Source of the DNA: Psammoneis japonica
Lineage: Eukaryota
Reading direction: 5' to 3'
NCBI GenBank assembly: GCA_008632985.1
Contig: QPGO01000101.1
Coordinates: 310,001 to 332,024, forward strand
Length of the DNA: 22,024 bases
Of this stretch, positions 1-22,024 are shown piece by piece. Every line of letters starts with the position of its first letter. Position 1 is the first letter of the stretch. Made by a program: the position numbers and the translations under genes. Under the pieces are notes generated by a model that made no database searches, was not told the DNA's origin, and saw nothing but the letters and a program-made list of their open reading frames with translations.

Positions 1-146
1 GATTGTCGTCAGGTGGTGTGTCGAGAGGAGTCGTGATGGAGTGCCGCTTTGTGTTTTTGTGCTGCGTCTGTGCAGGAATGTNGCGTGCTTGGCTCTCGTG
101 TAGTTTCCACACAAAAAGTGCACCAGGCAATCTCTGGACCGCCCTC
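1..146. mobile_element. Terminal fragment of a second copy of the Sola3-like element, running off the window's left edge
   Basis: 2-146 is the reverse complement of 244-389 and a direct match to 3915-4028. It ends in ...gccctc, immediately followed by an intact TTAA (147-150). Confidence 0.8.
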
Positions 147-1531: not shown

Positions 1532-1633
1532 CCAGGCCACACAGAAAATGAACGGGCCGAGAACTGTGGTGCGCCCACTTGGTTAAGTGGGCGTGCCAGA
1601 GTTTTCGGCCCGTTCACTTTCTACGTGGCCTGG
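1532..1633. mobile_element. 102-bp hairpin MITE with a 2-bp TSD (ca, probably ex-TA; Tc1/mariner-like)
   Basis: 49-bp arms (1532-1580, 1585-1633) around a 4-nt loop ggtt. Flanked by ca/ca. The opposite palindrome arm (~2150-2165) shows the empty site ttg-ca-agg. Confidence 0.85.
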
Positions 1634-3342
1634 CAAGGACTGAGGCGAGCGCGCGGCCACACGAAGTTGTCAGTCCCGCCCACTCGTGACTCAGTGCATT
1701 TCCACGGTGAAAATTGCGCAGGAATCTGACGATGACAAAAACGGTCAGATGACTTCCACTGACTGCAATGTGAGCCGCACCTGACGTACATTCTTTGTTT
1801 GTTCACAGTTGAGTTGACCATTTCAGGCGTTGCATGCAGTTGCTTTGACAAATTGGAAGTCATCCGAGACAAAACACAAATCGCACGGAGTGCCGTGGAT
1901 TTGCACGCAATGCAGTGCTTGGCGTCATTTTGGTGAAATTCATCAAAGTGACTGCATCCAACGCTCAAAGGTGTTAATTCATGCACAAAAGAAGATGCAA
2001 TGCACATTGGGTGCAGTTGACATTGCAGCCAGTGGAAGTCATCTGACCGTTTTTGTCATCTTCGGATTCCTGCGCAATTTTCACCGCAGAAATGTGCTGA
2101 GTCACAAGTGGACGGGACTGACAACTTCGTGCAGCCGCGCGCTTGCCTCAGTCCTTGCAACCCAAATCTGTGTGGATTCAGCACATTTCGCCCTGTAGAA
2201 CAGTTTTTGGGAGTGTTTTCTGGCTCGCGGCTCAAAACAACACGCAAAATAACACAGACAATGGCGTTTCACCGATTTGAAAAATGCGATCGTCTCTGAG
2301 GTTGGAACCTGTGTGCTCTCAATGGAATTTGGTGCGTCACATCATAAGATGCGAGACAAGCTTGAGAACGCCCAGGTTCACATGGGCAGATCATGGTGAA
2401 ATTTTGAACTGAAGATTGGTGCTGACATCGCCGATTTTGTTGCATCAACACGCAACTCATGCATCACCATTCATGCTGTGCATTTCGTTGAGCACCCACA
2501 CGCTCACATTCTTTCAACGTGCACGTGTGTTGTCTTTCCTCATTGTTGTTTTGTCATGCAGGGTCTCCCTTGCCATGAGCCATCCCTGAGAGAGAAAAGC
2601 TTGCTTTGAATGTCACTTCTACCTTGCAACGGCCACGGCAGTCTGACGACAAGTCCAAGTCACATGTGCAGCATCAGGGTGACTTCACAACAAACACAGA
2701 AGCTTGGGTCTGTGGCTTCTGAAGATGTTCAAGCTCTTGGCAGCTCAGACTTGTCGTCGAGCAATTTTGCCGCGCATTTGACGTGCATCCAGAAGGTGAT
2801 GCGGAGTTTGACTTGGCAGGCCAGTGCATCATGGTGGTTCTAAAGGCATGGATTGATTCTTTTGGCTGCAAGGTGTTTTGCAGCCCAGAAACATGCAACT
2901 TGTTTGCCCCATTTGTCAGCCAATGCAACAAATTTAGAGGGCGAAGGACGGGACAAATGGGTCATTGTGTCAAGTCTCAAAAGTGGCTCAAGAGTTTCAG
3001 CCAACAAGAGCCATTGGCTTCACAATTTAACAAGTGAGTGCAGAGTGTGTGTGTTGGGGCACAACATCTCCATTGTTGTTCTAGAGTGAACAGCAAATGG
3101 CATTGATTTGGCTGACAGTGCAGCCAATGTGCGGGCGCACCTTGACAATCTGTTGCACTGCATTCTGAGATTGTGGAATGAAAAGAACAACTTCAGTTTA
3201 CATTGTTTCATCATGACAGAAGTGTGCGAGCTTTCCCTGGCCCTTTTGGAGCAATCGGGCAAGTGAAAGAGGAGCTGCAGACAGATGCAGACGATGCCAT
3301 TTTGATGCATGGTCGTCGCACGGTGTCGTCGTGAGTCGCTGA

Positions 3343-3906
3343 CAGGCTCATGGGCTCAGGGGGGAGCTGGGGCTCCCCAGTTTATTTTGTCTGGCGAGGT
3401 GGGTTGTGAGCCACTGGGGCACACCAAGTGCCACGTGCCGCACCACGCACTGTGCCAAGCAGCACGGACCACGCGACGAGCGCATGGTGCACAGTGCAGT
3501 GCACACAGTGCATGCAAATGAACCGCAATGGCAGATGCCATCCATTGCAAGCAGACACCATCAAATGAACACACCATGGAGCATGATGCGCCTGCTGCAG
3601 ATGAGTCTTTTCTCTCCTGAGGAACTTGTTCAATGAGAATCAAACAAGAGTTCTCAGACAAGATCACACTCTCTCTCCTTCTTGCATGCAACAAAAGGCC
3701 TGCCCAGGTGCCCAGCCAGAGCAGACTGCAGTTCAATGTGTGCAACAGATCGCATGATGATGGTCTGACCTGCACCGCAGGGTGTGATCCCCCCCAGGTT
3801 TAACAGGCAGCATGATGGCGCACTCCAAAAACTGGGCCCCTGCTTTTTTTGTCGGGGGGACTCCTCTTTTTCTCGCAAAGTGCTCCCCCCCAAACCCACA
3901 AGCCTG
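3343..3906. mobile_element. Non-autonomous hAT-like element, 564 bp
   Basis: Perfect 8-bp TSD gtcgctga (3335-3342, 3907-3914). 25-bp imperfect TIRs start CAGG (caggctcatgggctcaggggggagc vs caggcttgtgggtttgggggggagc). It interrupts the right arm of the palindrome and is absent from the left arm. Confidence 0.9.
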
Positions 3907-4260
3907 GTCGCTGATGGGCGTGTCATGCTTTCTGTTTTTGTGCTGCGTCTGTGTGGGAATGTGCGTGCTTGTCTCTTGTGTGGCTTCTGTGCAAAAAGTG
4001 TGCCAGGCTGTCTCCGGAGACTGCCCTCTCAATGTTTTGGCAATTTTGTTGGAAAACGAAAACATTTGTCTTACATCAGACACAATTTGTTGTGCTGTAC
4101 ATCCAACAGAATGCAACAAAATCCGTCAGCACAAGTCTGTGCTGAATGACTGGGCATGAGTTTCTGGAAAAAACAAATGGCAGAACCAAATTCCTCATGT
4201 GTGGAAAGGGGGGCAAGGCACTGAGGGTTTGTTGGATGACAGGGTTTGAGGTTGAGATGT

Positions 4261-4657
4261 GACAATCAAAGCAGGTTTGTGTGGGACCTTGCGCTGCCGC
4301 TGAGCTGTGACACTCCTGATGGTTTTTGGAATTGAGTCGCGTGTTGCGCACGTGCACTTCCCGTGATTTTGGTGAAATTTTGCGTCATTTCATGGCACAA
4401 TTGTTGGGCAATCCACTCAACAACTTTTGACGTTTTTTCTTCTGCACCATTCTCAAATGTCTTGAGAGCGGCACAGGGCAGGCAGGCCATCCCCAAAACC
4501 TCAAGTGTGAGCAGAGACAGATGCTCCACAAACTTGATTGTTTGCTTTGTGTTGAAGACAAACATGCCCATCAACCAGAGTGTGAACTTCAGAGCTTGTG
4601 CACAAAATTCCATGGGGCAAATGCCACAAACAGCCCAACCTGGGTCTGGAACATGTC
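4261..4657 (-). mobile_element. Degenerate copy of the ~395-bp GACG...CGTC MITE family
   Basis: Colinear with 16159-16548 (e.g. caacaacttttgac, cacaaacttg...gttgaagacaaa). Right end is ctggaacatgtc. Left end is eroded and no TSD is recognisable. Confidence 0.7.
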
Positions 4658-5094
4658 TTTTGTTGTTGATGACAAAGACAGCCAAATTTTGTCAAGTTGT
4701 GTGCTGAGCAAAAGGACATCGCCAAAGCACATGTTGAGCACAAATGACGTTGAACATTTTGTTGCTGAGTTTTACAATGTTTTTGTCCTGTTTGTCGCCA
4801 ATGATTTTTGCTTTGTCTTGTTTCCCTCTTTTCAAGACAAGCCATCAATCAAAACACTGTGTGTCCCAGAGAGTCACCTCAAATCTGTTGAAAATGTGTT
4901 GGCGGCAGTCCTTGGTTTGCTTGTGCATGTGTCACCTCACCTCACCAAACACAAAGCTGTGTGCAAAAGACATCTCCAATTGTGGCATGGCATGTGGTGC
5001 ATGACCGTTGCGGCACTGTGCATCATCGCGCATGATGCCAATTTGTTTGGGCATGAATGTCTGTGTCAAAAAATCTCAACGGACATCCAAAAAA

Positions 5095-5487
5095 TGTTGA
5101 ACCTGATGGTCTCAACAAAAACTCTGTTGAAACCACATGGTTTCAACAAAACTCTGTTGGCAGCCAAGAAAGTTTTGTTGAGGTTTTCTGTTGAAACCAG
5201 CAGTTTCAACAAAATGAGTTTTTGACAAAAAGTGCTGAAATTGTTGGAATGTTGAAAGTGACGTCATTGTTTGGAGATCGGTGCTTGTCAACATTGTGCC
5301 AACACACACAACAAACACTCCACTTTGATGAGTTGAAAGAACTTGTCAAAAAAACTGCTCACTGCCATGGCAACTTGCACAAAACAAACACCTTGTCTGA
5401 CGCGGAGTTCCGTGCACCACTCAGCGTGCAATGTCTGGCATCCACTCATTTTTCAACAAAATTTGTTCAAACCACATGGTCACAACA
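5095..5487. repeat. Cluster of ~24-bp palindromes tgttgaaacc...ggtttcaaca
   Basis: Copies at 5095-5117, 5125-5148, 5189-5211 and 5464-5487, plus half-sites in between. Confidence 0.7.
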
Positions 5488-5799
5488 AAAATCCGTTGAA
5501 ACTGAAAACATTCTGGGAAGCATGAACTCCTCTGGGGGGGCACCATGTGCAACACTTTTTTGTGTGTGTGCTCCATCATGTGTGAGTGTAAATTTGCAAT
5601 TTGCCAATTCCCTGCACATCCCCTCTCACAACTGTTGTGTCTTGTCACTGCGAGCGCAAGCTGCAGCGCATCTGCAGTGAGGGCCAAGGCTGCAGCAGAG
5701 CCGTGCAAGCTCAAAACACATGTGGTTGATTTGATGGTGTCATTTTGTTCTTTCCCTCTCTTGTGACAAGGGGGCACTTTGTGTTGATGTGCTGATGCT

Positions 5800-7480
5800 T
5801 CAACCATGCTCATCACCTGCAGTGAGTGGATGGTCATGGGGCTGCATGCACACCTGCCCAAAATGTTGACCCCATCCCCTGGGCCCTTTCAGGGGGCATT
5901 CCTTCCTGCAAAATCACCCTCATTTCCAGGGTTTCCCCAAAGAAGGTGAGTCAACTCCCCCTTGCTGCCTTGGCCACATTTTGGGGGATCCACAAATGTG
6001 CAACAACCACGCCGAGGGCTCAAAAATGCAAGCTTGCCAGCTCTGCCACAGACAGAGTGGGGCGCAATGATTGGCGCTTTGCCAGAGGCTTGGCATCTTC
6101 ACTCAAGGCCACAGTGGACACTGTGTCATCTGATGAGGTTGCTGCAGCACACTCTGGAACAGCAGCATCATGCATCATCTTGCTTTGGCCATTTCATGAC
6201 TGAGCATGCAGGTGCGCTGTCTCTCAGCCAATTTGTGTGCCTGGCGCAGTTCTTGATTTCTCTTGGGCAGAGATTCATTTGCACCAGAGCTGCAGTTGAG
6301 TTGACACCAGAGCTGCAATTGAAAGCACACAGTCAAAAAGATTTGTCACCTTGTCAACATCTTCACAAACCCACAAAGCTTTTCAAGAACATGTGTCATC
6401 TTCTCTGCAACAGCGTCATTTGCTGCCAGCACTGCTGCACTCACCTTGTTGGGCTTGTTGTTTTTGGGCTTCTTGTTTGACCACATCATGCAACAGCTTT
6501 CTGAGAATTGGGGCAACACAATGGAAAACAAGCCAGGATTTGACTGGCTTGCTCAGACCATCAAAACAGCCAGGGGCTGTGTGTGTCGGTGAGGGCATGG
6601 CGCTGCATCACTTCTCATGACCCGCGCTGGCTGGCACTGCAAAGAGTGCTCCATCTGTGGCGTGCAGAGAGATTCACATGCACAAGTGAAAATCTGGTCT
6701 GTCCTCTGCCTCATGGCATCTCTGCAAAAGTTTTTTTGTTTCCAAAATTGATGGCTTCTTTGCTGTGCGGTGCTTCTTTTGTGTCGACGGGTTCCAGTCC
6801 TGGGTGGGACTCCGTGTGACATTGGGCCCGCAGAATTCTGCGTGCGAGCTCCGCAGCAAATTTGCACTGCAATGAAAATGCACATGATTGCCAACAGAAA
6901 AAGAGGCAATTTTACAAACGTGTCTCCTCCTTCATGCACGCAGCACATCATTGACAGTTTGCTCGGGCATGTTCTTCAGACATCAAAGAACACACCCGGT
7001 GCATTTTCATTCTCACAAATGTTGAAAATAGAAAGCCTTTTGCTTTGCAAAACAGGGGGCACGAAACAATTTCGTAGAACATCACACGTAGAAATGCACA
7101 TGCGCGACATGCGACACGATCCAAAAAACTGTTGATGTCACAGTTCAGCAGCACGAGGTCCCACCTAGAGCTGGAATTCGTCTGTCTTCTGATGTCGCCA
7201 ATTGATGTGTCTTTGTTCCTGCATTTGCCATGTTTGTGGCTCACGCCACTGCTGCTGTTGCAACAAGGGCCTTTTTTTGCCCCAAGAGGACAGACAGGTC
7301 ATCAACAGAATTCCGCGTGGCAGCTCATCAAAAAAATTCTGAGTTTTTTTGGCATTGAACTTGTGCAGCAAGTCAATCACTCAGCCATCATCTCTTGCAA
7401 TGGCAGCATGACAAGTGCACAATGCACACTTTCATCAAACAATGTGGGCCCACAAACTCTCACTTGTTGTTGATTTGCCT
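5800..7480 (-). pseudogene. Possible decayed coding region of unknown product, interrupted by a MITE
   Basis: Protein-like minus-strand stretches (SWLVFHCVAPILRKLLHDVVKQE; ALGVVVAHLWIPQNVA) broken by TGA stops. No family recognised and boundaries are approximate. Confidence 0.25.
6786..7182 (+). mobile_element. 397-bp MITE, GACG...CGTC family, 4-bp TSD (Sola-like, tentative)
   Basis: TIRs gacgggttccagtcctgggtgggac / gtcccacctagagctggaattcgtc. TSD tgtc (6782-6785, 7183-7186). Colinear with 14204-14599. Confidence 0.9.
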
Positions 7481-7944
7481 TGTTGCCTGCATTTTGCATT
7501 CAGGTGTCATCACAAATTTGAAATGGACAATGTAAAAAGCACCCATCATTGAGGACAATCAACAACAAAAAATCTCAGCAAATTCTTGATCGGTGGATGA
7601 CTTTTCTCGTCACAGAAAATGCAGCGATGTGCTGCTTTTGACCACCCACCGCACCATGCTGCAACATTCATTTGTCCCACTGTTTTCATCAAGATCTCCA
7701 TTGACCTTCTGACTGATGCTTGCAGACTGGGTTTGTGCATCAGTTTGCTCTTGCCCTGACATGACAGACTGGCTGGAAGAGGACAGAGACCAATTTTCTG
7801 CTTGTGGTGCCACAGCAATTCAAAGCGGCGTTGGCTTCGCAGAAATGAATTTTTTGCACCAGTGCAGAAATGCATGCATGTGCATCTGGCACATGAAAAT
7901 CATGCCGGATCAATCTTTTTTCCCAACATTTGGCAATGGCGGCG

Positions 7945-8501
7945 GACGTGTTCCAGCCGTGCGTGAACCAAATCATGCACAAAAACAACATTTGCACAAT
8001 TTTTGCACGGCCCCTGACTTGCGATCGAACTTTCAACACCAAAAGCACAGATTCGCACAAATGCAAATGTTTTGCGACACTGACAAGACTCGTGTGAGTG
8101 TCGCAACATGTTGTTGTTGTTGCGCTCTCTGTGTTTTTCATTGCGCTAAAAGATTTGCAACACAACAGATGATTTTCGGCGAAAATGTTGCTGTCATTTG
8201 GACGTCACCTGAGTGTGTCTTTCTGCGATGCCACTTGGCAGGTTTTCCACCTGCAAAGAAATGTCAGCATAAATCAACTGATGCACAATCAGTGTTGAGT
8301 CCACTGAGGAAGTTTGTGATGCATTTCCCATGAGGATTTGAGTGATGCTCAAAAAACCGTTTGAATGTGCATGCTCAAGAAGCCCACAAAAGTCAATCCG
8401 TCTGAGTGTTTTGCATGAAAATGCTGCACACACTAAAAGATGCATGAACTGCACTCAAAATTGATTGTCGTTTTGTGCGTCACCTGGGGCTGGAGCATGT
8501 C
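7945..8501. mobile_element. 557-bp MITE sharing the GACG-family TIR
   Basis: Ends gacgtgttccagcc / ggctggagcatgtc. TSD ggcg (7941-7944, 8502-8505). Interior differs from the ~395-bp copies. Confidence 0.8.
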
Positions 8502-8820
8502 GGCGGTGGACCGTTCGCAGCTGATGCGCCACTGACACCACGTCAATTGTCATCAAACCCATGGCATGTTGCTTGTCACCCTCTTCTTGGCACACATGTT
8601 CCTTTGAAATTGCGCACTCTTTGGCCACAATCCAGACAATCAACAACATCAACATGGGCAAATGTCTGGTGGGGCAATGGTCTGACATTGCCCACGAACT
8701 CGCGCGCGACATTCTTGCCCGACATGTCTGATTTTTATAAAATTTGGTTTAAATTTTTTTACACACGGTGTCAGAAATCTCACTTCATCATCCAATGTTT
8801 TTTGTCATGTGTCTCAAGAA

Positions 8821-9581
8821 AATGGAGTGGCGCACTTTCAAAAATTCGGTGCGCATGCCTGATCTGCACAAAATGTGCGTGCGCAAAAATGTGCTGCAAA
8901 ATTTGTAGAGATGTTTGTTTGAATTCACTTCACACACAAACATCACGGCAACAACGCCGCGACATCGGCAATGGACGCACACAACAACGACAGCGGACTG
9001 GGAGGTTGTGATGCACTGAGACAACAACTGACATGCAAGAAATGAGGTGTCAATGTCAAATGACAATGATCAAGTTGTTTTGGGAGCTGGTTGAGCCATT
9101 GGTGACGAAGGGTTTTTGGCACGCACAACTTGGTGCTGAAATCACGCAGAGGTTTTGGCCATGGTGGGACTGTTGTTTTTCACTTTTTTTGGGGTGTGTT
9201 TTGTGTTTTCTCGGTCGATCGCATTGATGGAGCACTGAAGTGAGCACGCGACAACAGATTTTGACGAAAAGTTGGATTTTCATTCATTGTGGAGGATTGG
9301 CACGGGGTTTTTAACACGGTGAAGCACGGGGGGACGATTTTTTCACCAGATTTGCAAGATCCTGCATCCCGCCCAATTTGCGCGCATGACATTGGTGGAT
9401 TGATGCATTTTTCACACGCAAAAAGCGCAACAACGTCAACACACCTGACATGACAGACTTCCCGTGCTGTTGTCGCAATGAAGTGAAATCTTGTTGTGTT
9501 CGGTGCGTGGAGTCTAGCACCATTTGTCCGCATGTGGACGAGTGCTGCGCACCGCAATTTTGGAAAGTGCGCCACTCCATT
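8821..9581. mobile_element. ~755-bp TIR element, superfamily unassigned
   Basis: ~35-bp inverted repeat aatggagtggcgcactttcaaaaattcggtgcgca (8821-8855) vs 9546-9581, with weak similarity extending ~130 bp inward. Exact ends and TSD are ambiguous. Confidence 0.7.
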
Positions 9582-10387
9582 CAAATGTGGCGACCATGCG
9601 GAGAATGTTCCCGACATTTTCAAGTGCAGCACTCATCCACTTTTCACTGTGCAACAATTCCCCTTTGTGACAGCCCCCGATTCACATTGCTTTCAAACCC
9701 TGCTTTAAATCTGACAAGCACACGGACAACATTCCCGCCATTTTACAGTGCAACACTTGGATGCTTTTCACATTCTACATTGCTGCAGCTCCCGAGCTGA
9801 GTGGATTTCCCAGTTGACATCAATGCCACAGTCATTTCCTGTCACACATTGGCAAACGCCACCGCCATTCTGCACGCGTCCTCGTTGCACCCTTGGTCGC
9901 TTCTGTGTGTTGTTGTTCACTCCTCCTCATCAAGACCCCATTTTTCCTCTTCTTCTTCCTCTTTGCTCCCTTGCTTGTCATTCCTTCCTTTGGCCTCCTC
10001 CTTGCTGTCACTCCAATCATTTTTTGGAGCAGCCCATCCACTCATGCTGTCCTTTTTTTCTTCTTTCTTTTCTGCAGGCACTGTGCATTGACTCTGCCGC
10101 AATCCACTCTCTCCTTCACCACAGCATCGCAGAGTTTGTCGCACTTGTCGATCTCATCCTGGTTCCATCCTTGATTTCGTTTTGCACCTTTCCCCAAGAA
10201 AGTGCACTTGGTGGCCACGGGTTGTTTCAGTGGTGCAGCCACGTGACCTTGTTCGAATTGCTCTTCGATCTCTGCCACCGACACGGCCGTTTCACAGCAG
10301 TTGTCATGCATCAGCCTGGCAAAAGCTTCTGTGCATGTTGTCAGCCAATCGCAGACACCTTGGCTGTCTGCTGTTTTAACATGGCAT

Positions 10388-10971
10388 GAGACGAAAATTG
10401 TTTGGAATTTTTTCTGGTGTGATTTCCACACGTTTCTACACAAAGCGATGGTTGCACTTCGGCTTTTCCCAGGATGCCATCAAATGCTGCGTTTCCTTCA
10501 ACCAAGTGTCCTGCATTCTCAATTGGTGTCTCCTTGACTTGCCTGTGGAAAGAAGCTGCAAGTTTCAAGATTGTGTCAATGAGATGTTCCTGTTGGCAAA
10601 AAAAAGGTCCTGTTTTTTCGCCCCAAGTTTTTGAATTAGATGCTCAGATGGGAAAAAGTGTCGAAAGGTGCAGTTTCTTTCACTCGGCAGGAAGCCAAGA
10701 CAGTGGAGAAAGTGTCTGCATGCTTGAACTCACAAGTGTTTTTGTCTTGGAAGTGCCTTTCATGGCCTTTCCAAGACGATGTAGAGAACGAGGCAACAAA
10801 TGAGCAATCGCCAAAACGGAATTTCCGTTGAGCGACACACTTGCAATCACGCGCATGCCAACCCATGTGATTCGCCAATGAGACACAATGCTTTTGTCCG
10901 ACGACGAATTCCTGATTCCCGTGATTTTCAATGAAAATGCGCGCGGAAACGATTTTCACAATTTTCGTCTC
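10388..10971. mobile_element. 584-bp MITE with GAG...CTC ends and a 4-bp TSD (Sola2-like, tentative)
   Basis: Perfect 14-bp TIR gagacgaaaattgt / acaattttcgtctc. TSD gcat (10384-10387) / gcac (10972-10975). Inserted in the accessory pseudogene. Confidence 0.8.
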
Positions 10972-11059
10972 GCACCACCTTGAAGTGCTCTGTTCCTGCC
11001 GCTGGGGGGGCAGCAATTTTCCAAGAACCAGAAGTGCGTTTGAGGCAACGCAGCCATTT

Positions 11060-11126
11060 CTGAGCAAGAATCAATTTGTGAGAACACTGGCCCATCTCAT
11101 CCACGCACAGCCCTGACAGTGCTTGC
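11060..11126 (-). other. 67-bp spliceosomal intron with donor GCAAGC (probably ex-GTAAGT)
   Basis: Minus strand: G|gcaagc...ctcac...ctcag|AA. Splicing gives ...RKKLV-E-MAALPQTHFWFLEN. Confidence 0.6.
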
Positions 11127-12129
11127 CAACCAACTTCTTTCTAAAAACCTCCTGCCTGTTGTTTCTTCTTCTGTCAAGTCTTTTCCGCACCTTCTCCTTG
11201 TTCGCTTCCCACCAAACTGCAGAGTCACTCGCGTCCACATTGAGGTGTTTGCAAACCTTTTTCTGCATTTTGCTCCCGAACGCCAACTCAACATCGTCGT
11301 GCATCACGAATTTTGTCTTTGGGTGCACAGCCATTGCAGCGCAGTCGGTCATCTGGCCGTCCACAAACTTTCTCCTCACCGCCTCCGAGCTGACAACGGA
11401 CACTCCCGCAATCTCCACATCGTGTGATCTTGTCTCTGCCATGTCATGGGTGCCAACTGCAATGAAGGTCACAAGACATGCGTGAGCTTGCCAACCCATT
11501 TGTGCAATGATGCCGCAACGCACTCACCTGGTGAATCGTTTCGTGCCGACATGTTTGCTCACCCACTCTCCAGTGTGTTTTGTGTCAACGAAATTCCTCC
11601 CTCTGTGCCAAACCCAGTCCTGAGTGTGCGCCCGCCAGCACGCCCGTTGGCCCTGTTTGAAAACTCCCTTTTGTTGCATGCCAAATTTTTCAAAGCACTC
11701 ACTGTCAAGCATCAATTGATGAATTTTACATTCCTTTTGAATGGCATGTTTTGTCGTTGTCAGCCTCACATCATCCATTCACTGTGCATTTCATGATCCA
11801 TGCAAAGAACAATGGCACTCCCCACTGTTGCATGCCACAATTTTCAAATCTCCAGCTAATTTTTTTTTCGTCCAGATTTCAACAGAAGCAAGGGCTGCAG
11901 TCCGGACACTTCTTTTTACTTTTTTGTCTGGCGTGCGACACCTCGCTGTGCCGTCTTGGTTGCCATGCTCTGAGCTGCCCCGATCTTGTTCTCGCCCGGC
12001 CACAAAGAGCAGAGCACCGTTTTGACATGCAGCATTTCTCAACTCACTGGTCCGTTGCATGTTTCCATGATGTGGCATGCACTGTGTTGATGTCACACTG
12101 TCCAGGCCATCAGGCTCATCTCTTCACCC

Positions 12130-13592
12130 TCAGTCATTGCCCAGCCTTGCTCTCACACTTCTGTTTTCCTCATTGTTGACTGCCTCTTCTTCTCTCGCCG
12201 TCTCGCACGATTCGCACAAGCACTCCACAACTTCATGCAATCCACCGTTGTGACCATGTCTGGCTGAATGCACTCCTGTGCAAAATGTCCGCAATCCCAA
12301 GAGCACTTTCTTGCACACTGCTGTGTCTCCGCTCACCAGCGGGGGGCAAGTTCCCTCTGCGCAAGGCCAGAAGGCTCTGTCGCCGTTGTCGTGTTCTTCC
12401 AGATGAATCACGTTAACACGGGTTTCTCCTCCTGGTCTCACCTGACCATCTCTTCTGGGCGGCAGAGCACACACAATGAGCGGGTGGCGGCATTCTTTGT
12501 CTCCTTCAAGGCAAGCCAACACAATTGCGCAAGGCAGCTGCTGCGAAACGCACACCAGTGTCTCCAGCTCCAAGTCCACCAAATCTGTCGTCAACGTCAC
12601 TTTGTCCATGCACGGGTTGCAACGGATCTTTTCCTTTTTTATCCACCCTTTCACAAATGGTTGCCAGCTGTGCCAGTTGAATCTGTCACCATCCATGTGT
12701 CCCACCGCGACACAACAATTCAAAGCTCTGCGGTCGACGCAAGTTCTGTTTTTATCCAGTCTTTCATGCAAACTCATCATCTGAAATTCTCCCTCAATGT
12801 GCGCCTCTCGCAATTCACGCAATGGCCTTTTCATCTGGTTTTTCCGCATTGAAGTGCACCTGGGATTGCCAAAGTTGCGCCTCCACATTCTCAACGTGTT
12901 GTCTTGCTTTGCTGCTTCTCTCAAAGCATTGAGCACGTGTGGCAACATCTGTTTGTGACCCTGCAGCTCATGTGAGAAAACACACATTCCAGGATGCCTT
13001 TGGTTGATGCAAGGCATCCAAGGCTGCCCAGTGTGTTGTGCTGTTGGCAACTGGAACACAACATGTTTGATCAAAGTGCCGATTCTCTGTTGATGGATTG
13101 TGATGTGTGGCAGCTGCGGCGCCACTTCGACTCTGCAGGGTCGCTGCATCAAAATTTTGTGTGGGGCCAACTCATCTTCCAAAATTCTCCCTCAATGTGC
13201 GCCTCTCGCAATTCACGCAACGGCCTTTTCATCTGGTTTTTCCGCACTGAAGTGCACCTGGGATTGCCAAAGTCGCGCCTCCACATTCTCAACGTGTTGT
13301 CTTGCTTTGCTGCTTCTCTCAAAGCATTGAGCACGTGTGGCAACATCTGTTTGTGATCCTGCAGCTCATGTGAGAAAACACACATTCCAGGACGCCTTTG
13401 GTTGACACAAGGCATCCAAGGCTGCCCAGTGCACTGTGCTGTTGGCAACTGGAACACAACATGTTTGATCAAAGCGCCGATTCTCTGTTGATGGATTGCG
13501 ATGTGTGGCAGCTGTGGCGCCACTTCGACTCTGCAGGGTCGCTGCATCGAAATTTCATGTGGGGCTGCACCCGGGGATTCCAGTCGCACCAT
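12130..13592 (-). pseudogene. Unknown ~350-aa protein gene disrupted by an internal tandem duplication
   Basis: Collapsing the duplication merges ORFs 13149-13592 and 12130-13182 into one Tyr-free, protein-like frame. It is divergent from the gene at 14056. Confidence 0.5.
12771..13566. repeat. Tandem duplication, 2 x 398 bp
   Basis: 12771-13168 and 13169-13566 are colinear with a constant 398-bp offset. Differences are almost all transitions. Confidence 0.95.
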
Positions 13593-14203
13593 CCATTCAT
13601 CATGTGTCGCTGAAAGTGAGAATGAAATTTTGATGTTTGTCTTTCAACTTGTCGATTCGACTGCACACAACCAGGACACAAATCGACACACTGTCATCAA
13701 AAAAGAATTGATTTTTTGTCAAATTTTCTGCACTGTCACCCAAACAAGAGAGTGATTCTGTGCAGCTCAATTTTCATTGCTGAGGACAATTCTTTTGTGT
13801 TTTTTTGTGGTCCCAGGTGATGCTCCGGGAACACGCCCACGTGTTCACAATGTCACACAACCTCTTTGCATCTGTGTTGCTGTTTTCTTCTGCTTGGTTG
13901 CAACCCACTCTGCAACAAACATCCATTTTCTCCTGCCATGTCGTTGTCACATTCCAGCTGTCACCACATTTGTCATCTGCCACCCACTCCAACAGGACTT
14001 GATCGCCGAAACAACAAACACTCTCGGCAACGTGCGCATTTCCAACCCGGTCAGCATGTCAGCAAGAGGACCTTGACATGCAAGAAGCACCAATCATTTG
14101 TTCCGCACTCTTGATGCTGATGGATTTCTCAACACACTTCCAACGGGACAAGCTTTGGTCATCCGGCCAAGAGCGCTGCATGACTGTTTGATGGTGCACA
14201 ACA

Positions 14204-14599
14204 GACGGGTTCCAGCCCCAGGTGGGACTTTTTGTGACATTGGGCCCGCAGAATTCTGCGTGCGAGCTCCGCAGTAAAATCATCAAGCAATGGACACATG
14301 AATGATCGCCAACAGAAAAAGAGGCAATTTTGCGAACGCATCTCCTCCTCCACACTTGAAGCACATTCTTTGCAGCATGCCCGGGCATGTTCTTTAGACA
14401 TCAAAGAATGTGCCCAGCGCATTTTTGTTGGCACAAGTGCAGATGACAGAAAGCCTTTGGCTTCGCAAAACAGGCAGTGTGGAACAATTTTTCACAACAG
14501 AACACGCAGAAATGCACGTGCAAAACACACGACGGATGACAAAAAATGATTGTGTCACAGCTCAGCAGTGCGAGGTCCCACCTGGAGCTGGAACACGTC
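14204..14599 (+). mobile_element. 396-bp MITE, GACG...CGTC family
   Basis: TIRs gacgggttccag / ctggaacacgtc. TSD aaca (14200-14203, 14600-14603). Excision restores the host frame (VHN-NKHL). Confidence 0.92.
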
Positions 14600-15523
14600 A
14601 ACAACAAACATCTGTCATCTGCGCTGAGGGAGGTTGCAGAGGAATTGTCGTCGCAGATGAGCCGACGAAGACAGGCTGATGCAAGGAGAAAATCTCTTGC
14701 TGGGAAAAGGAAGTGCACGCAAGACGATGACTCGCTGGAAAAGAGCGCACCTGCTGACGAGGTTCATGGCAATTCTGTTGGTTCCCGTGTGGAGGGACTT
14801 TTGATTGAATTGACAAAGGACATGTCAGCAGACTTTTGACTTTGCTCACACCGCTTTGGAGGTGACGAGCCACTGTTTGCCGATCAAGCAGTGTTGGACA
14901 ACCATTGCTTCGGATGTCGCGACGAATCATCCGACTCACCCAATGTCTGCACCACCGGGAATGACGTTGTCAACAACAGTGTGTTGGTTGTGGGCCTTGT
15001 CTTCAGCGACGGGACAACTGACGCATCCTCCCAGGAGCGCAGAGACACCACAGCATGCAAGGCACTGGTCAAAAACGGATTCAACGTCCACACTGTTGAC
15101 TGCCATCAAACAGTTGCTTCGAATCCGAATCACGTGGTTGCCGATGTGCTTGCTCTCAATCGTTGTGAAAATTGGGCTTCCAAGGAATGTGCCCACAACT
15201 CAATGTTGATGGACATTGGGCTCAAATCTCACTTCAACGACAGAATCTTGACAGACTCGTTTTTCAGTCAATCGTTGACTCGCTTCCGTCAAAAGCTGTC
15301 TGATGTTGGCAATGCATTTCTGCCTGTCGATGCGACGGTGGCCCGTTGCCTTCATGAGAGCTGGGCTGTGGTTGGCAAAGTGTGGATTGTCAGGTGCCTG
15401 TGAAATGATCAGTTGGAGGAAGTGCCTCTTTTCCATCCATTTGCAGTTGCACACCTGCGCCGTGACGGAAAGCAGGTGGGCACTCATCCTTCTTGTGAAG
15501 ATTGTGGAGCAACATTGTTGGAG

Positions 15524-15602
15524 GTGCGTGTTTCATTTAGATTTTTTGTGCTGGCTTCTCGTTTTGGTTGTCGCTCACTTCTTGGATTTTGTCAATCTCT
15601 AG
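15524..15602 (+). other. 79-bp spliceosomal intron
   Basis: GAG|gtgcgt...T-rich...ctcac...ctctag|ATC. Splicing links ORF 15413 to the frame of ORF 15645 and everything downstream. Confidence 0.7.
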
Positions 15603-16158
15603 ATCAAGGACTTTGTCTCAGACAAAACACAGGAGCCAGTTGTTTTGTGCCCACATGGCGTTGAAAAAATCAACTGCATTGCTCTCACTCCACGAAGAAG
15701 CAACCGCGTCACCACCACTTGTGAGGTTGCAAACTCGTTGCAGGCAGTCGATGGTGTTGACGGAAAGGTTTGCGCAAGATGTTCCTTTGAACATCTGGAA
15801 AGCTGTGCAATGTGTCCCATGTGCTGTCAGATGCTGCTGTGAAAGGCTTGGAACACCAAGTCTCTTGCAGACCGGGGCCACAAGCTAGACGCAGCTTTAG
15901 ATGCCATTGATGCAAACTGTGGTCACATGGGCAGAAGGAGCAAGCGCAAGACTGGGGAAATCAGCAAGGCCGACCTTCCAAAGGAAAAAAAATTCAGTTG
16001 TTGGGTTGAACAGTGCCAGCCGCTGGACACCCCGAATGGGCAAGATGACAAGCATTGGGGAACAACCTCACTTTTCCCAACAGACAAGAAGAGAAGTCAC
16101 AAGCCCAGTTGTTCCCCGATTTCGATCTTGCCAATCTGCAAAAGATCAAAACTTCATG

Positions 16159-16548
16159 GACGCGTTCCAGGTCTAGGTGGGACCTCGCACTGCTGAACTG
16201 TGACATCGACAGTTTTTTGAATCACGTCGCATGTCGCACACGTAGATTTCTACGTGATTTTTTCGATGTTTTGTGTCATTTTACGGTGCACTTGTTGAGC
16301 GATCCGTCCAACAACTTTTGACATTTTTTGTTGCAGCGCGATTCTACAATGTCTTAAGAATCGCGCAGGGCAGGCGCATTTGCAAAAACGTTGAGTGGCA
16401 AGAGGCACAATTGCACCACAAACTTGGCAGTTTGTTTGATGTTGAAGACAAATGTGTCCATCAATTAAATTCTCATGCTACGGAGCTCGCACGTAGAATT
16501 CCACGGGCCCAATGTCACACGGAGTCCCACCTGGGACTGGAACCCGTC
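16159..16548 (-). mobile_element. 390-bp MITE, GACG...CGTC family (least mutated copy)
   Basis: TIRs gacgcgttccaggtctaggtgggac / gtcccacctgggactggaacccgtc. TSD catg (16155-16158, 16549-16552). Excision restores KLHG-KDSH. Confidence 0.92.
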
Positions 16549-18893
16549 CATGGAAAAGACAGCCATTGTCGAGAAAAAGCGTGGATGCCAGATTCAAGTG
16601 CATTTCCGTTTGCACGTGAGCTGGCACGCGGCAACTGGGTTGGAGTCTGCAAAGAAACTGGCATCGAATCTCGGTGGCGATGTTCGTGTGATGCCAAATT
16701 CGTGCAATCATCCTCATTCTTGTTGTGCCCAAAGGATCCAATCATCGTCAACAAACACAATGTTGCTGGAGCTGACACTCCTGCAGACAGCAAACCCATT
16801 TTTCAAATGCTTCAATTGCCACCGGAGATTGCAAATGAGGACCTTTTGTCTCAAACTGCAAGTGTCGTCGAGGATGGATCATGCACTGGACTCGGCGATG
16901 AGTTTGTCACCCTTTCAAAAGCAGACAAGCGCAGAAAGTTTTGCTCCATGGACGGCGGGGTCAATGCAGCTGGTGGGAAATGGAGCAGAAGCTGTGGTGT
17001 GGGAGTGGCAATGCCGGGATGCCCACCGGGAGCAACCGACCGCACATCTCCAAGGTTGCGCAGGTGGACACTCCAGCTCTCTGCAATGGTGGTGCATGGC
17101 GTTTGCCGTGGGGTGCTGGATGGAACACAACGATCGCAACAGGGTGCAACAAGCTCCCTCCGACGAAGGGTTGCCTCAAAATGTCAAAGATGGCTGAACT
17201 GCCCAGATGATCTGTGGGCCATTCTAAGAGAGCTCCGCACACACACCTCCTCAATTGGAGCAGCGACTTGGCATTCAGATGCGAGCAATGGGAAGGACAT
17301 TGATCACGATCACATCACACTTGCCTCACATTTGGTTGAGGACTGGTCCATGTTTCCATCCCAAAAAAATGTCAACAAGCCATTGGAGAATTGTGTGCCT
17401 GCAAGAAACAGCTGCTTTGCTCACTTGTTGCACACAAGGTCGATCATTGACAGCCAATTGAAGAAGCTTGAGTTGCACGTTGATTGTCCTTGTGCGGAGT
17501 CTTTGATTGCAGCACTGAAGGAACATTCCGACACCATTTGCCTGCACACACTCAGCAACCAGGAAGAAACAGCCAAGGCTGCAGAAAAGATTCTGTCTTT
17601 GGCAGAAACAAATGTCACATCTGACCACAGCAAAGGAAGGTGCATCAAGATGAAGGAGGGTGAGACTCAAACAACAGTGCTCGGGTGCATCGTGTGGCTG
17701 TGGATTCTGTTTTGTGAGCGCTGAGACGGAGCTGTTTGCCTCTGACATGTTGCAGAGTGCAAGGGGTTGGTTTGCAGGGAATGCAGTGGAACACCTCTGC
17801 CAGCTCGGTCTGTGTCAACTGCTGTCTCCTTGCCAGCTTGGGAGAGAATGCTCAAGTCTTTGACTGAACTGAGGGGCAAGATGTTCAAGTGCATCGCACG
17901 ATTGGTGAAAGAAGCAAAATGTGGTGGTGACCTCAGCAAGGCACACTGTTCCTCCCATCCCAGGTGGCAGAATGTCAGCAAGAGCCTGTGTGACGGGACA
18001 CCCGAAACAGAAGATTGTCCACATCTGTTTGTCAGTTTTTTGGAAGAACAAGACAGGGTGCTGCGCAATCCAAACTCGATGGAAGAAGCAAAGGAAACGG
18101 CTCGTCAGTTGACAATGGATGGGAAAAAAACAAGGAAAGCAGTGCAGCTTGGAAGCGCAAGAGGAAATTTGTGCATCCAATCTGGTGCCTGCCTTGGTGA
18201 TTGTCCAGCTGAGAATGCCACATTTGCTGCTTTAAGTGATGATGATAAAAACGGATTCTATCGGCGCCTGGTTGACACGGTGGTGGAGAGTTCTCCCGTT
18301 GAACATTCTGGTGGAATTGAGTTAGACGAGGCACAGAAGACATGTGAGGCAGCGCGGCGACTGACGCGCAACAACAAAATGTCAGTGACCATGGCATGCA
18401 TGGACCAGCCATCATGTCACCTGCACCGTCCAAGGAAACATGGTTTGAAAGAGGACTTCATTTTCCTCCACAATGACGGCACAGTCTTTTTGCTGATGAG
18501 ACACAAGGAATTGTGCGCCACTGCTGCCAAGACACACGGATTCAAACATCAGATCAAATTTTTCTCAGTCGACAAATGACACGGACTGGAGGATTTTGCT
18601 GCAAAATGCAGTCACACAACCGACCCGGAGAGTGTGTGGTCACATTCAAACCTTGTTGAATTGTGCCAGAAAACGTTGACAGAATTCCGGAAAATCATGT
18701 GAGGAGACTTGCTTTGTTGCAATGCATTGTCAAACTTCACATGCACTCCTGCCTCCCGAGTGCAAGCCACCATTTAAAAAAAGCTCAGGCCACTCATTCT
18801 TCATGTCGAGGACAAACAAAATCTTGTTGTCAGACGTCTCTTGATCGGACATGGAGCCGGACAGGGACAAATTGGTCACATTTTGACTTTCCT

Positions 18894-21800
18894 CTAAATT
18901 GTTTTCAACAGCTTTTTTTCTTTTCTGGCCTTTCTTTTGTTTTTTGCCCCGGTCAACAAAAGCTGTCTTGGGCAATGCAACACGCCCATTCCGCCGCCAA
19001 CAAGCACGTTCTTCTGACAATGCCCAAAGGTGCGTTTGGGTGATGTGCCCTCCATTCGCCAATGCTGAAACAAACCGTTCTTGCTCGTTTTTGTTTCCAT
19101 GGCGTTTTGCTTCAGACAAGTTCTCCCAAAAGCAACAACTTCTTTTTTGTTGTCACTCAGAATGAAACCACACAGTTGCATTGGAAACAAGCTGTCGGTT
19201 CCATCGTCATTTCTGCATTTGACACGTGCAAAGTCATGCCATCACCCGCCCTTGCGGCAATTTGGGTGCGCCCAAAAGCGCAGCTTGTGTTCGGCCTACA
19301 GATTTGACTTGGAATGCACAATGACGTGCCTGCGCCGGATTCCCCACTGGTTGCGACGGCACAAAAAATCAACAATGTCTGGCTCCAGATGAGTGCTTTG
19401 TTCCCTTTTCATTTCCAAGGTGCCGGTGCACTTGCAGTGTGTTTTTTTGACTCAGTCGACTGTGAACATGGCGCGACCCAGGTCGTGGTGCAATGATGCT
19501 GCCACTGACAAATCCTGAGATGCATGTGGATGGACAATCAAATTGTTGGCTCTCTCCAAAAGACTCTGCTTGTGCAGTCGGCTTGCAAGTTGACGTGTGA
19601 ACTCTTCTTTGCCTTGCAATGCTTGGCAGGTCCAACTTGGAAGCTTTGCCCATTTCTTTGGACCAGACTTGCCGGTGGCGGCATCCCATCCAGAAAACAC
19701 ACCCAACTGACAAAGAGCGGTGATCAAGCGCAGCAGGTTGTGGAACTTGGATGTTTTCCATCCATGCGTGCCTTCACCGTGATTGATCATGCTGCGCAGC
19801 TCAAACATCAGAGGTGCCAGGCAACATTTGATGTTGGCTCGGTTGGCGTGTGAGTGCAGGGAAGAACTGCAGCTGCAGAAGGAGTGGAGCAACAACAATT
19901 TGTTGAGCAACAGCAACAAGTGTTCCACATCGTCACAGTCCATTGAACAACAAGCCGGCTCCATGTCGTTGCACAGGCTGTTTGGCCTTTGGCGGAATGC
20001 AAGAGGCAACTCCTTTTCAATTTCTGAACAAACGAACGGCGGGTCGTGAGAATTTGCCTTTGTGTGAAGGGACTGGCGTCAATCCGCGCAGCATCTAAAA
20101 ATCTCAGAAACGGAGGAATCGGCATGGTTTGGGATGCAGAGCTGACGATCCAGGTTGACATTTCTTGTTTGCATCCACACAGTGTTGTGACAAATGTGAG
20201 CTTGAGCCATTGTCAGCTGCGTCATGCAACGATGTGTGTGCATGAGCCCGCGACGGTGATGTTGATCCTCCAGATGTTCATTGTGGACAGGGTCATTGTG
20301 GTTGCATTCTTCGTCAGCACAAGGCTTGCCAACCAAGGATGTGGAGGCCTGTGGTGGTTGATCCCCAGGGGAAACTTCCTCCTCGTCACTCTCTTCCTTG
20401 TCATCTTGCAGATTTGGCTGCTGTTCATCTGAGTCATGTGCGGACTCATCGTCATCATCAAGCAAATTGTTGTGGTTGTCGGAAACGGGCTCACCTTCTT
20501 TGTGTGCACAACCATCATTGTCTTCTTCTTTGCGCTCACATTCTTCTTCGTGCTCACATTCTGAAGGCTGATCATCGAAATTAGAAGCACCTTTTTTCTT
20601 TGTCTTGTCAAAATCAGGATGGCAACGAAGACGGAGCATGCTCTGTCCCTCCTCGGTCTGACCCATCAGTGCCAGCGCAAACAGCTTTCCCATCTTTTGG
20701 TCGCAGGTCAAACCAGACAAGGCACAAAATCCATTTCGCAAGACAACCGGTGGAAAGTTAGATCTCTGACCTGGTCTGCACGACTGAGATCCAAGTGTGC
20801 GGTTTGCCAAAGCAATCAGTTGGGATTGGGAGGAATCGGGCAAATCGTCGAGAATGACAGAGAGCGTCTGAGGGACCATGCCACCTTGGAACATGTGCAT
20901 TGGATCAGGGGGCGCAAACCCAAACACACCCTGACGATTGTCTCCCATCCAAAGATGAAAGAATGAGTTGTCAGCCGTGTGTTGGCCAAACACCTTGTGA
21001 AGCATGGTGGAACAAATGTTCATGCGCCGGATGACTGCGCTGTGTGCCTTGGAACGGATTGAATCGGCTTTCGTCTCAGACATCACTGTGTCGATTTGTG
21101 ATTCGACACAAAGATGCCATGGACTGTTGGTGGAACTGGGTGGTGGTCCAAGTGCTGCAACAGTCAAGTGCTCCATCAGTTCTTGGGAAAAGCGCCTGCA
21201 GCAATGTGAAGGTTCATCGCTGTTGGTCCACGAAGTGTGACAGGCATGACTGATGTGGCGGGAGTTTTCGCGACCAGAAACACGGCCGGTTGCTTGTGCG
21301 GCGTTGACAGCACTGCCCAACAATGTCATGCTGTGGACAACAATGCACTCACAACAACGCTGGTCACCGAGTCGGGCTCGGCAGATGGGAGGTGATTCTT
21401 GTGCTTGAATTGCAGACGCCAGAAGAACAGACAAAATTTGGTGGCAATTTCTGACGTTCATCCCGAAAACGGGATTCTTTGTTTTGCAACCTGTGTGTTT
21501 TGGAACAAAACCAAGAGGACGCCATGCTTCAAAACGACGGTGGGCACATGACTTGATGAGAGTTGCAGAGAAAACAAATGGCTCCATTGAATGAGGTGCG
21601 ACCTGTCCTTTCCCAGTTTTGTCGGTGCAATGCAAAATGAACACATGAAAGGAACCGGGGACAGCAGGAAAAATGCAGCCACAACATCAGTTGCTGCAAG
21701 TTTCACCATCCTTCATTTTGGCATCATCACAAAGTTTCCAGTTGCCATTCTCGTCCAACATGGGTTCACTGGAGATCACCTGAGACCAGCGTGAATTGGG

Positions 21801-22024
21801 AGGAACATCAAGATTTGAAAGTTTGGCAAAAAGGGGATCGTCGAACAGATCCTGCAGTTGGAGGGAAAAGTTGCACACAGGGATGCCGGGAGAGAGCTCC
21901 TGAGGCAGGTTGTTCTTGAGTTGGTTGGCAGTGGAGACAGACTCGAGAGGAGTGTGCTGCGGCACCGGGGGCACAACGCCAGGCAACATTGACTTGAGCT
22001 TGGACAGGAAAGTTTGAGAAGAGG
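18894..22024 (-). pseudogene. Plavaka-type (CACTA-related) transposase pseudogene; 5' end lies outside the window
   Basis: Motifs in order: TDKT, EP, AWRPLGFVP, RNCHQIL, PPDPMHMFQGG, acidic insert, GWKTSKFH..L......LG...GWD...G....K.WAK.P...CQ, and C-terminal AHPNCRKGG*WHDF (~19230-19270). Stops and frameshifts are present. Confidence 0.8.

Follow-up and report, generated by a model that had tools for sequence, protein, structure and literature searches.

A probable dead, hypermutated Plavaka-like transposon in Psammoneis japonica whose large second gene may have encoded a TET/JBP-like protein acting on DNA bases

TET genes are reported to ride on fungal transposons, Plavaka elements among them (Kojima, 2025; PMC12730594). 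The fungal transposons described as bearing TET/JBP genes include Kyakuja-Dileera-Zisupton, Plavaka, EnSpm and other groups. Some of the encoded proteins, the 'PE type' TETs (among them K5WYP2, A0A8H7KFD6 and A0A8H7C4L8), are described as recognisable by structure only, through their similarity to CMD1, NgTET and CcTET (PMC12730594). The termini of Plavaka elements are given as TGT..ACA or CATCA..TGATG, with target-site duplications of 2-3 bp (Kojima, 2025; PMC12730594). Outside fungi, Plavaka elements have been reported across Archaeplastida (PMC13519894) and in Amoebidium (PMC11244446). The giant Plavaka elements of the red alga Bostrychia moritziana are reported to bear three genes, PAG1-3, of which PAG3 joins a ParB-like domain to a 2-oxoglutarate (2OG) oxygenase and adjoins inverted-repeat arrays (10.1101/2025.02.11.637652). 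This report deals with a locus in a 22,024-nucleotide stretch of DNA from Psammoneis japonica (contig QPGO01000101.1, positions 310,001 to 332,024 of the forward strand; hereafter the window), in which a large gene on the + strand, here called the cargo gene, converges on the remnant of a Plavaka-like transposase gene on the minus strand.

The locus is probably, although far from certainly, the remnant of a dead, hypermutated two-gene transposon of the Plavaka/CACTA type, whose cargo would have acted on DNA bases to counter silencing by methylation. According to the models described below, the cargo protein (1100-1700 amino acids, aa) would be composed of a class I methyltransferase fold, a Cys4 zinc ribbon located in a variable linker, a TET/JBP-like jelly roll of the 2-oxoglutarate/Fe(II) type with a conserved HxDxxN motif, a helical domain similar to helix-hairpin-helix (HhH) DNA glycosylases and, at its end, a small beta domain. 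In active copies, the TET-like domain is predicted to oxidise a 5-methylpyrimidine in DNA and the fused glycosylase-like domain to remove or further process the oxidised base. The element would in this way evade methylation-based silencing, a role such as has been proposed for the TET genes of fungal transposons. As for the substrate of the TET-like domain, 5-methylcytosine (5mC) is the more likely one, because of the Asn of the motif, the CpG decay of the host DNA, and the differences of CG versus TG/CA that are found between copies of the locus (those of the DNA run X1, described below).

A phmmer search against 1.84 billion representative proteins recovered 23 relatives of the cargo protein at E≤1e-3, 12 of them at E≤1e-10 and the best at 3.2e-60. 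Five relatives are full-length (1058-1521 aa), and the open reading frame (ORF) of the window matches their C-terminal half; the window copy is 26% identical to the relative P0009. Despite a mean column identity of 16%, the alignment of 24 family members contains about 80 positions that are at least 80% conserved, with 18 invariant ones (including E402, H432, Q504, D653-Q654 and R661), and this argues that the cargo protein has been under strong functional constraint. Other collections were silent: a word-indexed search for homologues of near length, made with the read-through frame, returned none at E≤0.01, the ESM Atlas had no usable match for the cargo protein, scans of viral contigs returned no match, and Pfam recognised no domain in nine homologues at E≤0.01.

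The folds of the family were modelled with AlphaFold on P0009 and compared exhaustively with 48,161 chains by means of VIA-align. The model of residues 538-1312 (775 residues, from the 24-row alignment) has a pLDDT of 90.8 and a pTM of 0.71, and that of residues 85-311 (from an 8-row alignment) a pLDDT of 91.9 and a pTM of 0.90. Residues 9-340 of the larger model are predicted to form a double-stranded beta-helix whose nearest solved structures are TET/JBP enzymes, with CcTet of Coprinopsis (Z 8.5; 208 residues aligned, rmsd 4.1), TET2 (Z 8.2), NgTET1 (Z 7.8) and CMD1 (Z 7.2) at ranks 1, 2, 3 and 5. Between 173 and 213 residues are aligned in these matches, and sequence identity to TET2, CcTet, NgTET1 and CMD1 (9hxv, 7vpn, 5cg8 and 7cy4) is 6-12%; after the TET family come AlkB-type (Z≤6.9) and other 2OG oxygenases. 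For residues 342-690, all 14 of the VIA-align matches listed are HhH-GPD-type proteins or their relatives (Z 4.3-7.5): the 5-PmdU glycinyltransferase of phage PaMx11 (8z2m_A; Z 7.5, 225 residues aligned), DUF2419 (Z 6.9) and AGOG (Z 6.7), and further down NTHL1, endonuclease III, Mag1 and MagIII (Z 5.0-5.4). The N-terminal model appears to adopt a Rossmann-like class I methyltransferase fold, as the 50 matches listed by VIA-align are all class I methyltransferases dependent on S-adenosylmethionine (SAM), with Z 7.2-8.4, and those listed by Foldseek (best E 9.1e-4) are all class I SAM-dependent enzymes (methyltransferases plus spermidine synthase). Thus the modelled folds are, as far as AlphaFold and VIA-align can tell, those of nucleic-acid-modifying proteins: a jelly roll like that of TET/JBP enzymes, a domain similar to HhH glycosylases, and the fold of class I methyltransferases. 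An earlier note on this DNA, made from its letters alone, had read methyltransferase-like, HxDxxN and HhH-like motifs in this order along the gene; the order was right, and the three motifs correspond to three domains in the P0009 models. The same note had spoken of a cargo analogous to, and differently built from, that of the fungal elements. Differently built it is, and 'analogous' seems too weak a word, given that the nearest solved structures of the central domain are TET/JBP enzymes.

The HxD iron-binding motif is present in the family (H808 and D810 of P0009), with His in 16 of 17 sequences, Asp in 17 of 17 and an Asn three residues after the Asp in 16 of 17; the three residues are intact in the window copy, which reads W-H-S-D-A-S-N (H-S-D-A-S-N at 17272-17289). 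In human TET2, the HxD motif is reported to bind iron, while N1387 (the Asn of HRDxHN), Y1902 and H1904 contact 5mC, the contact of N1387 being to the N4 of the base (PMC11804724). According to the same source, the activity shifts toward thymine when N1387 is changed, and the Asn is replaced by Asp in the T-specific enzymes JBP1 and NgTET1 (PMC11804724). In the window family, the domain has on its last strand a Y-x-R motif (16/17 for each residue), at the place of Y1902-x-H1904 in TET2 under the inferred register Y324=Y1902. The Arg of this motif is R326, which comes after the last strand; other well conserved residues are R177 (13/16), within W-x-R, and the pair D653-Q654 (12/12), about 70 residues after the hairpin-like stretch of the helical domain.

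The second line of evidence is the association of the two genes. In the window, they lie tail to tail, some 23-116 bp apart; the earlier note had the convergent layout right, and its gap of roughly 200 bp has to be shortened accordingly. A scan of metagenome contigs with a family sub-alignment (A5) gave two further loci. The first one, L001 (14,243 bp), carries intact, intron-free ORFs at 4847..9931 (+) and 9936..13793 (-), whose stop codons are 4 bp apart. Its cargo ORF shares 46% identity with P0009 and 25.8% with the window copy, and its transposase ORF is 50% identical to the relative P0003 and 30.1% to the window transposase, a divergence which, judged from the sequences, excludes recent common descent of the DNA. 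The second one, L002 (4,907 bp), contains only a decayed big gene with several stops and the contig ends there, so that linkage is not scorable. Convergent linkage was therefore observed in the single scorable extra locus (1/1), the only one long enough, and the recurrence of homologue and transposase side by side that the earlier note had proposed to look for is borne out at L001, in the same layout and with the same transposase family. Additional copies were seen in the one DNA run listed as containing the window (X1; 0.59 of the sampled words; no RNA data set is listed for it), with 7,208 contigs on an 8-kb stretch at a likeness of at least 80%. Most of these belong to a 400-bp repeat, and the eight longest pieces listed (81-89% alike) are spread over linker, big gene and transposase. 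One of them, which comes from another copy, spans the junction of the two genes (18442-18875). Both genes are, in consequence, present in several copies, and in at least one of the others they again lie side by side.

The transposase remnant occupies a single minus frame with in-frame stops at 21687, 20079, 19452, 19296 and 19242; the next in-frame stops, 18894, 18876 and 18801, are the candidates for its 3' end. Databases contain four relatives of the 535-codon ORF at 20079-21686, the best at E 5.8e-121 and 49% identity, and reading through two TGA codons yields one frame from the window end to 19452. Residues 281-1197 of the 1285-aa transposase ORF of L001 align in one minus frame with 21968-19050 (E 1.6e-123, 30.1% identity), while some 280 N-terminal codons, including the C2H2 finger of the relatives, lie beyond the window end. 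The name Plavaka, given to this gene in the earlier note, stands at the level of profiles and not at that of the Pfam model: PF18759 matched neither the window ORFs (E≤0.1) nor P0001-P0004 nor the 1285-aa ORF of L001, and its gathering score was reached by none of them. Nonetheless, a profile of the transposase family (A1) matches two PF18759 proteins, P0006 (E 3.5e-13) and P0007 (E 3.4e-12), whose own PF18759 scores, 56-58 bits, exceed the cut-off of 26.3, and hhalign aligns the family with PF18759 proteins over 291 columns (97.8% probability, E 1.3e-12), pairing the invariant D-K-T-G and W-R-P-L-G stretches. D-K-T-G and P-M-H are invariant in the five sequences of A1, and the D before P-M-H is found in four of five (N in P0001); we take D-K-T-G and P-M-H to be the first two acidic DDE positions, by analogy with CACTA and Plavaka. 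On these sequence comparisons, the transposase is best called Plavaka-like, that is, related to PF18759 without being a member at the level of the model. A long acidic low-complexity insert (D/E runs) follows the DPMH region at 20250-20620 (-) and is common to the relative P0001.

The base composition of the window is very unusual. Over the whole 22 kb, the observed/expected ratio (o/e) of TpA is 0.06, a near-total loss, whereas CpA (1.71) and TpG (1.64) are in excess and CpG (0.60) is moderately depleted. With TpA so scarce, the + strand has only 33 TAA and 28 TAG against 488 TGA, TGA is nearly the sole stop codon, and long ORFs require a control. The window holds 135 stop-free stretches of at least 80 codons, and sequences simulated with its composition (order 1 and order 2, 100 runs each) have a median longest ORF of 255 and 284 codons, respectively. 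The 488-codon length of the longest + strand cargo ORF was attained in 0/100 of the order-1 and 2/100 of the order-2 simulations. More telling is the distribution of stops: between 16258 and 18579, frame +1 has three and the other five frames 17-33 each, and between 19452 and 22024 the minus frame of the transposase has three and the other frames 17-38. This frame-specific avoidance of stops identifies both as former coding frames.

Both genes have shared in the TpA loss. Tyr makes up 0.15% and 0% of the residues in the window copies of the two genes, versus 3.28% and 1.62% in their relatives, and His and Cys are raised in both. At 15046/7, 17069/70 and 19171/2, three of the best-supported differences among the copies of X1, the window has CA where TG is found elsewhere, and this pairing at the same sites is the mark left by an ancestral TA whose two strands mutated independently. 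At five sites that read TG or CA in the window, other copies of the 400-bp repeat have kept TA. All this indicates that the window copy is the victim of a TA-directed transition process (T-to-C or A-to-G) that hits repeat copies one by one. Around the intact genes of L001 the o/e of TA is ordinary (0.74), and L002 presents a milder form of the window bias (TA 0.56, TG 1.34, CA 1.25).

The map of the cargo gene (Table 1) was drawn from tblastn of the relatives' proteins against the window. The gene is found in three pieces, 14990-15508 (frame +2), 16547-16720 (frame +2) and 16729-18777 (frame +1), with at least one frameshift; the passage from frame +2 to frame +1, near 16721-16728, is supported by four relatives. 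The earlier note had reconstructed a single frame of about 1250 codons, a length that fits the family, although the single frame was mistaken. To the N-terminal piece align residues 108-267 of P0009 (14999-15475, frame +2, E 3.8e-12) and residues 565-657 of the L001 ORF (15227-15508, E 4.5e-7), and a D-F/Y-x-W-M-P stretch conserved in this domain of the relatives is deleted in the window copy (alignment A6). Between this piece and 16547 extends about 1 kb without homology, which includes one copy of the 400-bp repeat and, in frame +2, stops at 15662, 15722, 15758, 15788, 15908, 16007 and 16046. The linker is variable in the relatives as well and bears their Cys4 zinc ribbon (alignment A2); in P0015 a Zn_ribbon_RanBP match was obtained under the Pfam threshold. 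In the helical domain, the hairpin-like stretch maps to 18148-18198 and the invariant D-Q to 18403-18408. Homology continues past the stop at 18577, the tblastn match of P0018 extending to 18672 and that of the L001 ORF reaching 18597 with 62 residues remaining. The TAA at 18775-18777 is the probable original stop, because it falls within two codons of the expected end of the L001 protein. Pfam gave nothing above threshold in 11 window ORFs. With a frameshift, five in-frame TGA codons (four in the conserved parts), an inserted repeat, the deletion suffered by the methyltransferase-fold domain and a near-complete loss of Tyr codons by mutation of TA to CA/TG, this copy cannot act.

Table 1. Coordinates of the features of the two-gene locus and its repeats (positions in the window)
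Feature	Positions	Strand	Remarks
N-terminal domain remnant (class I methyltransferase fold predicted in relatives)	14990-15508	+	frame +2, in-frame TGA 15401
Linker without detectable homology	15509-16158	+	tblastn, no match at E≤1e-2
Putative TET/JBP-like double-stranded beta-helix domain remnant	16547-17480	+	frame +2, then frame +1
Helical domain remnant, putatively HhH-GPD DNA glycosylase-like	17490-18440	+	in-frame TGA 17722, 17743
C-terminal beta-rich domain remnant	18450-18777	+	TGA 18577, 18700; predicted strands at model residues 674-711
Plavaka-like (CACTA/EnSpm-related) DDE transposase remnant	18894-22024	-	single minus frame
Copy of the ~400-bp repeat, just upstream of the cargo gene	14204-14599	.	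direct repeat with 6786-7182, inverted with 16159-16559
Copy of the ~400-bp repeat, inserted in the cargo linker	16159-16559	.	inverted repeats I6, I7, I9, I13; direct D3, D4 with 4362-4574

Several observations weigh against a base-modifying cargo carried by a Plavaka-like element. The folds come from models of an intact relative, in two parts, and not from the window copy. Foldseek found nothing at E≤1e-3 for the 775-residue model in either the Protein Data Bank (PDB) or BFVD. Z values of 7-8.5 are, according to VIA-align, a level common as best score, and for helical domains its caution is that a Z under about 13 may reflect a common arrangement only. Since the Z values are moderate, the case for the folds rests on the coherence of the ranks (the TET family holds four of the top five) together with the motif, and the fold evidence is best regarded as coherent but moderate. 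At the sequence level, none of the 24 family members matched Tet_JBP (PF12851), 2OG oxygenase, HhH-GPD (PF00730) or methyltransferase models in Pfam even at E≤10, a search of the PDB sequences with profile A2 gave no match at E≤10, and PHROGs and NCBIfam gave nothing meaningful for the cargo family. Several catalytic residues are also missing from their usual places. After HxD, no His at least 80% conserved occurs between model residues 277 and 431, where the distal iron ligand was looked for, and the invariant H432 (14/14) falls in a predicted helix; the Arg at the position equivalent to R1896 of TET2 is absent under the register mentioned above. In the methyltransferase-fold domain, the GxGxG of SAM motif I is absent from alignment A6 inspected by eye (LFIGLV / LYIGMERP, with one Gly), and strand 2 ends in D in four of eight sequences and in N in the other four. 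The helical domain has no conserved Asp about 20 residues past the hairpin (G573..I581..A585..P591). As for the element itself, the linkage outside the window genome comes from one locus (L001), terminal inverted repeats around the gene pair were found neither in L001 nor in the window, which ends inside the transposase, and target-site duplications of the element were not found either.

Part of these observations can be accommodated by other explanations. It is possible, though improbable, that the same cargo hypermodified DNA: the TET/JBP-like domain would oxidise T to 5-hydroxymethyluracil (5hmU), and the helical domain, an aGPT-Pplase-type or other transferase, would decorate the base, marking or shielding the DNA of the element. 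The helical domain matches best, as stated, a phage glycinyltransferase, which lies within 1 Z of DUF2419 and AGOG; these Z values are unable to separate a transferase from a glycosylase. BFVD has two matches under the name 'Amino acid:DNA transferase', which at E 0.66 and 0.95 are not significant, and T-oxidising relatives of TET/JBP are reported to exist in kinetoplastids, dinoflagellates and phages. The phage hypermodification pathway requires a kinase that activates 5hmU, and nothing kinase-like, either as a domain or as a neighbouring gene, turned up in the homologues scanned or among the ORFs of L001. Furthermore, the Asn after HxD (16/17) is shared with the 5mC-specific TET2, in contrast to the Asp of JBP1 and NgTET1 (PMC11804724). 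It is somewhat more doubtful that the big protein was a non-catalytic accessory factor which, like the second protein of CACTA elements, bound subterminal repeats with inactive domains derived from enzymes. This would agree with the failure to assign a distal His, an Arg for 2OG, a glycine motif for SAM or a glycosylase Asp, and with the zinc ribbon and repeated N-terminal modules of the cargo protein. Directly upstream of the big gene of L001 (3668-5242) there are, moreover, tandem arrays, 76-bp x 2.9 (4336-4558), 36-bp x 5.7 (4917-5120) and 54-bp x 2.1, which could be binding sites; the 76-bp unit has an inverted-repeat core, GTGATCCATTAGATCAC. On the contrary, the conservation of H, D and N in 16-17 of 17 very divergent members, together with that of about 75 further positions (E402, H432, D653-Q654 and R661 among them), is a pattern typical of active sites and not of scaffolds, and in any case binding and catalysis are not mutually exclusive.

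The remaining explanations deserve much less credit. It is very unlikely that the cargo is a self-contained base-editing module spreading outside fungi which, by oxidising thymine at TpA to 5-hydroxymethyl- or 5-formyluracil (mispairing with G), caused the TpA hypermutation that later killed the copies. The ordinary TA content at L001 gives no support to the cargo enzyme as a TpA mutator, and the caution of the earlier note on such a link, voiced because the window copy is itself a victim, was well placed. Hardly any weight can be given to chance proximity, in which the big gene would be a plain host gene that happens to lie beside the transposase. The failure to identify termini and target-site duplications in the window or L001, and a gene context known from two loci only, would be in keeping with it, and yet the convergent, near-abutting layout recurs in L001 at 26-30% protein identity, both genes are multi-copy in X1 (as fragments 80-90% identical) with one contig crossing the junction, and the TA-specific decay is equal in both, as judged from their Tyr content. 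Least credible of all, to the point of being negligible, is that the long + strand frame is an artefact of scarce TAA and TAG in TA-depleted DNA. Such an origin is suggested by the abundance of stop-free stretches and by the long ORFs of the simulations, and is ruled out by the frame-specific avoidance of stops (3 versus 17-33) and by the 23 phmmer relatives with their best E of 3.2e-60; an intact counterpart of 1331 residues exists, in addition, in L001. The reading of a dead transposon with a cargo directed at methylated DNA is therefore kept as the probable one.

The 400-bp repeat looks like a separate, very high-copy small mobile element or satellite and not like a part of the cargo gene. 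Its copies in the window lie at 4346-4574, 6775-7182, 14204-14599 and 16159-16559. The summed depth of X1 contigs is 70,000-81,000 on 14204-14599 and up to 226,645 on 16159-16559, against about 600 in the gene, and three contigs connect 14198 to 14599, an empty site of the repeat. Other features of the window lie at a greater distance. Nested long inverted repeats, 81-91% complementary, occupy 83-4018 and form a foldback or palindrome of about 3.9 kb centred near 1900 (arms, for instance, at 252-334/3936-4018, 363-468/3230-3335, 726-900/2785-2959, 1386-1531/2156-2301 and 1633-1792/1999-2158). A 398-bp unit is repeated 2.0 times with 95% identity at 12771-13565, which ends about 1.4 kb before the point where cargo homology is first detected. 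The third longest stop-free frame of the window, 353 codons at 12130-13191 (-), has no Pfam match, and its length, attained in 2/100 and 13/100 of the simulations, may be due to chance. L001 contains, for its part, an intact 530-aa ORF at 833-2425 (-) without match in Pfam or NCBIfam and without counterpart in the window; by eye it has H-I-D ... H-G-G stretches, and it could be another cupin or oxygenase-like protein.

TET-bearing transposons have been documented so far mainly in fungi, and the cargo of red-algal Plavaka elements has been described only through a weak match to 2OG oxygenases. Taken together, the locus of the window and that of L001 delimit a family of large proteins named by no library and kept beside a Plavaka-like transposase over a very deep divergence (26-30% identity). 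If active, such a protein would offer, on a mobile element, a one-protein route from modified to processed base, that is, a compact device for anti-silencing or DNA marking, and it would be a possible source of new DNA-modifying enzymes. It would also imply that the capture of base-modifying enzymes by Plavaka-like transposons is old and widespread.

How this locus relates to the known systems can be summarised as follows. With the fungal TET transposons it shares a Plavaka/CACTA-group transposon with a gene of putative TET/JBP fold beside the transposase, for which an anti-silencing role has been proposed. It differs from them in its cargo, apparently an 1100-1700 aa fusion with a methyltransferase fold, a zinc ribbon and an HhH-glycosylase-like domain without Pfam match, and in its transposase, which fails PF18759. 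Like the PE type of Kojima, the window family is recognised through structure and not through sequence models. Like the red-algal Plavaka elements, it is non-fungal and has large cargo genes, and the arrays with inverted-repeat core of L001 recall both the PAG3 arrays and the subterminal repeats of CACTA elements. Unlike it, PAG3 is reported to have an N-terminal ParB-like domain and an oxygenase match to 2OPW_A and not to TET, and PAG2 to combine PF01555 with SET. No Pfam family, and hence no ParB-like, PF01555 or SET domain, was seen in the 46 window ORFs of at least 110 aa upstream (1-13643), nor were these three domains found in the ORFs of L001, and only two genes are evident. The window family may be related to PAG3 or PAG1.

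At the level of the domains, the comparison with TET2, CcTet, NgTET1 and CMD1 reveals HxD and, three residues on, the Asn of TET2; the last strand also carries a Y-x-basic motif. Unlike TET enzymes, the window family has Arg at the position of H1904 and no TET-type Cys-rich domain. The helical domain resembles the HhH-GPD glycosylases and their relatives (AGOG, endonuclease III, MagIII, Mag1, the DUF2419 queuine salvage enzyme and PaMx11 gp46) in its modelled helical fold and in a Gly-rich, hairpin-like stretch, and it departs from them by lacking a Pfam match and the Asp at the usual spacing. Among host pathways, the plant ROS1/DME proteins are HhH-GPD glycosylases that excise 5mC, and mammals use TET plus TDG, in both cases as separate proteins. 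The inferred oxidation and/or excision of methylated cytosine would erase silencing marks as those pathways do, with the difference that both activities are predicted to share one transposon-borne polypeptide. No fusion of a methyltransferase fold, TET and HhH on a transposon was found in literature titles and abstracts, a weak absence given that many journals were not covered. On the evidence of the models, this cargo is a new and much enlarged variant of the TET-on-transposon theme.

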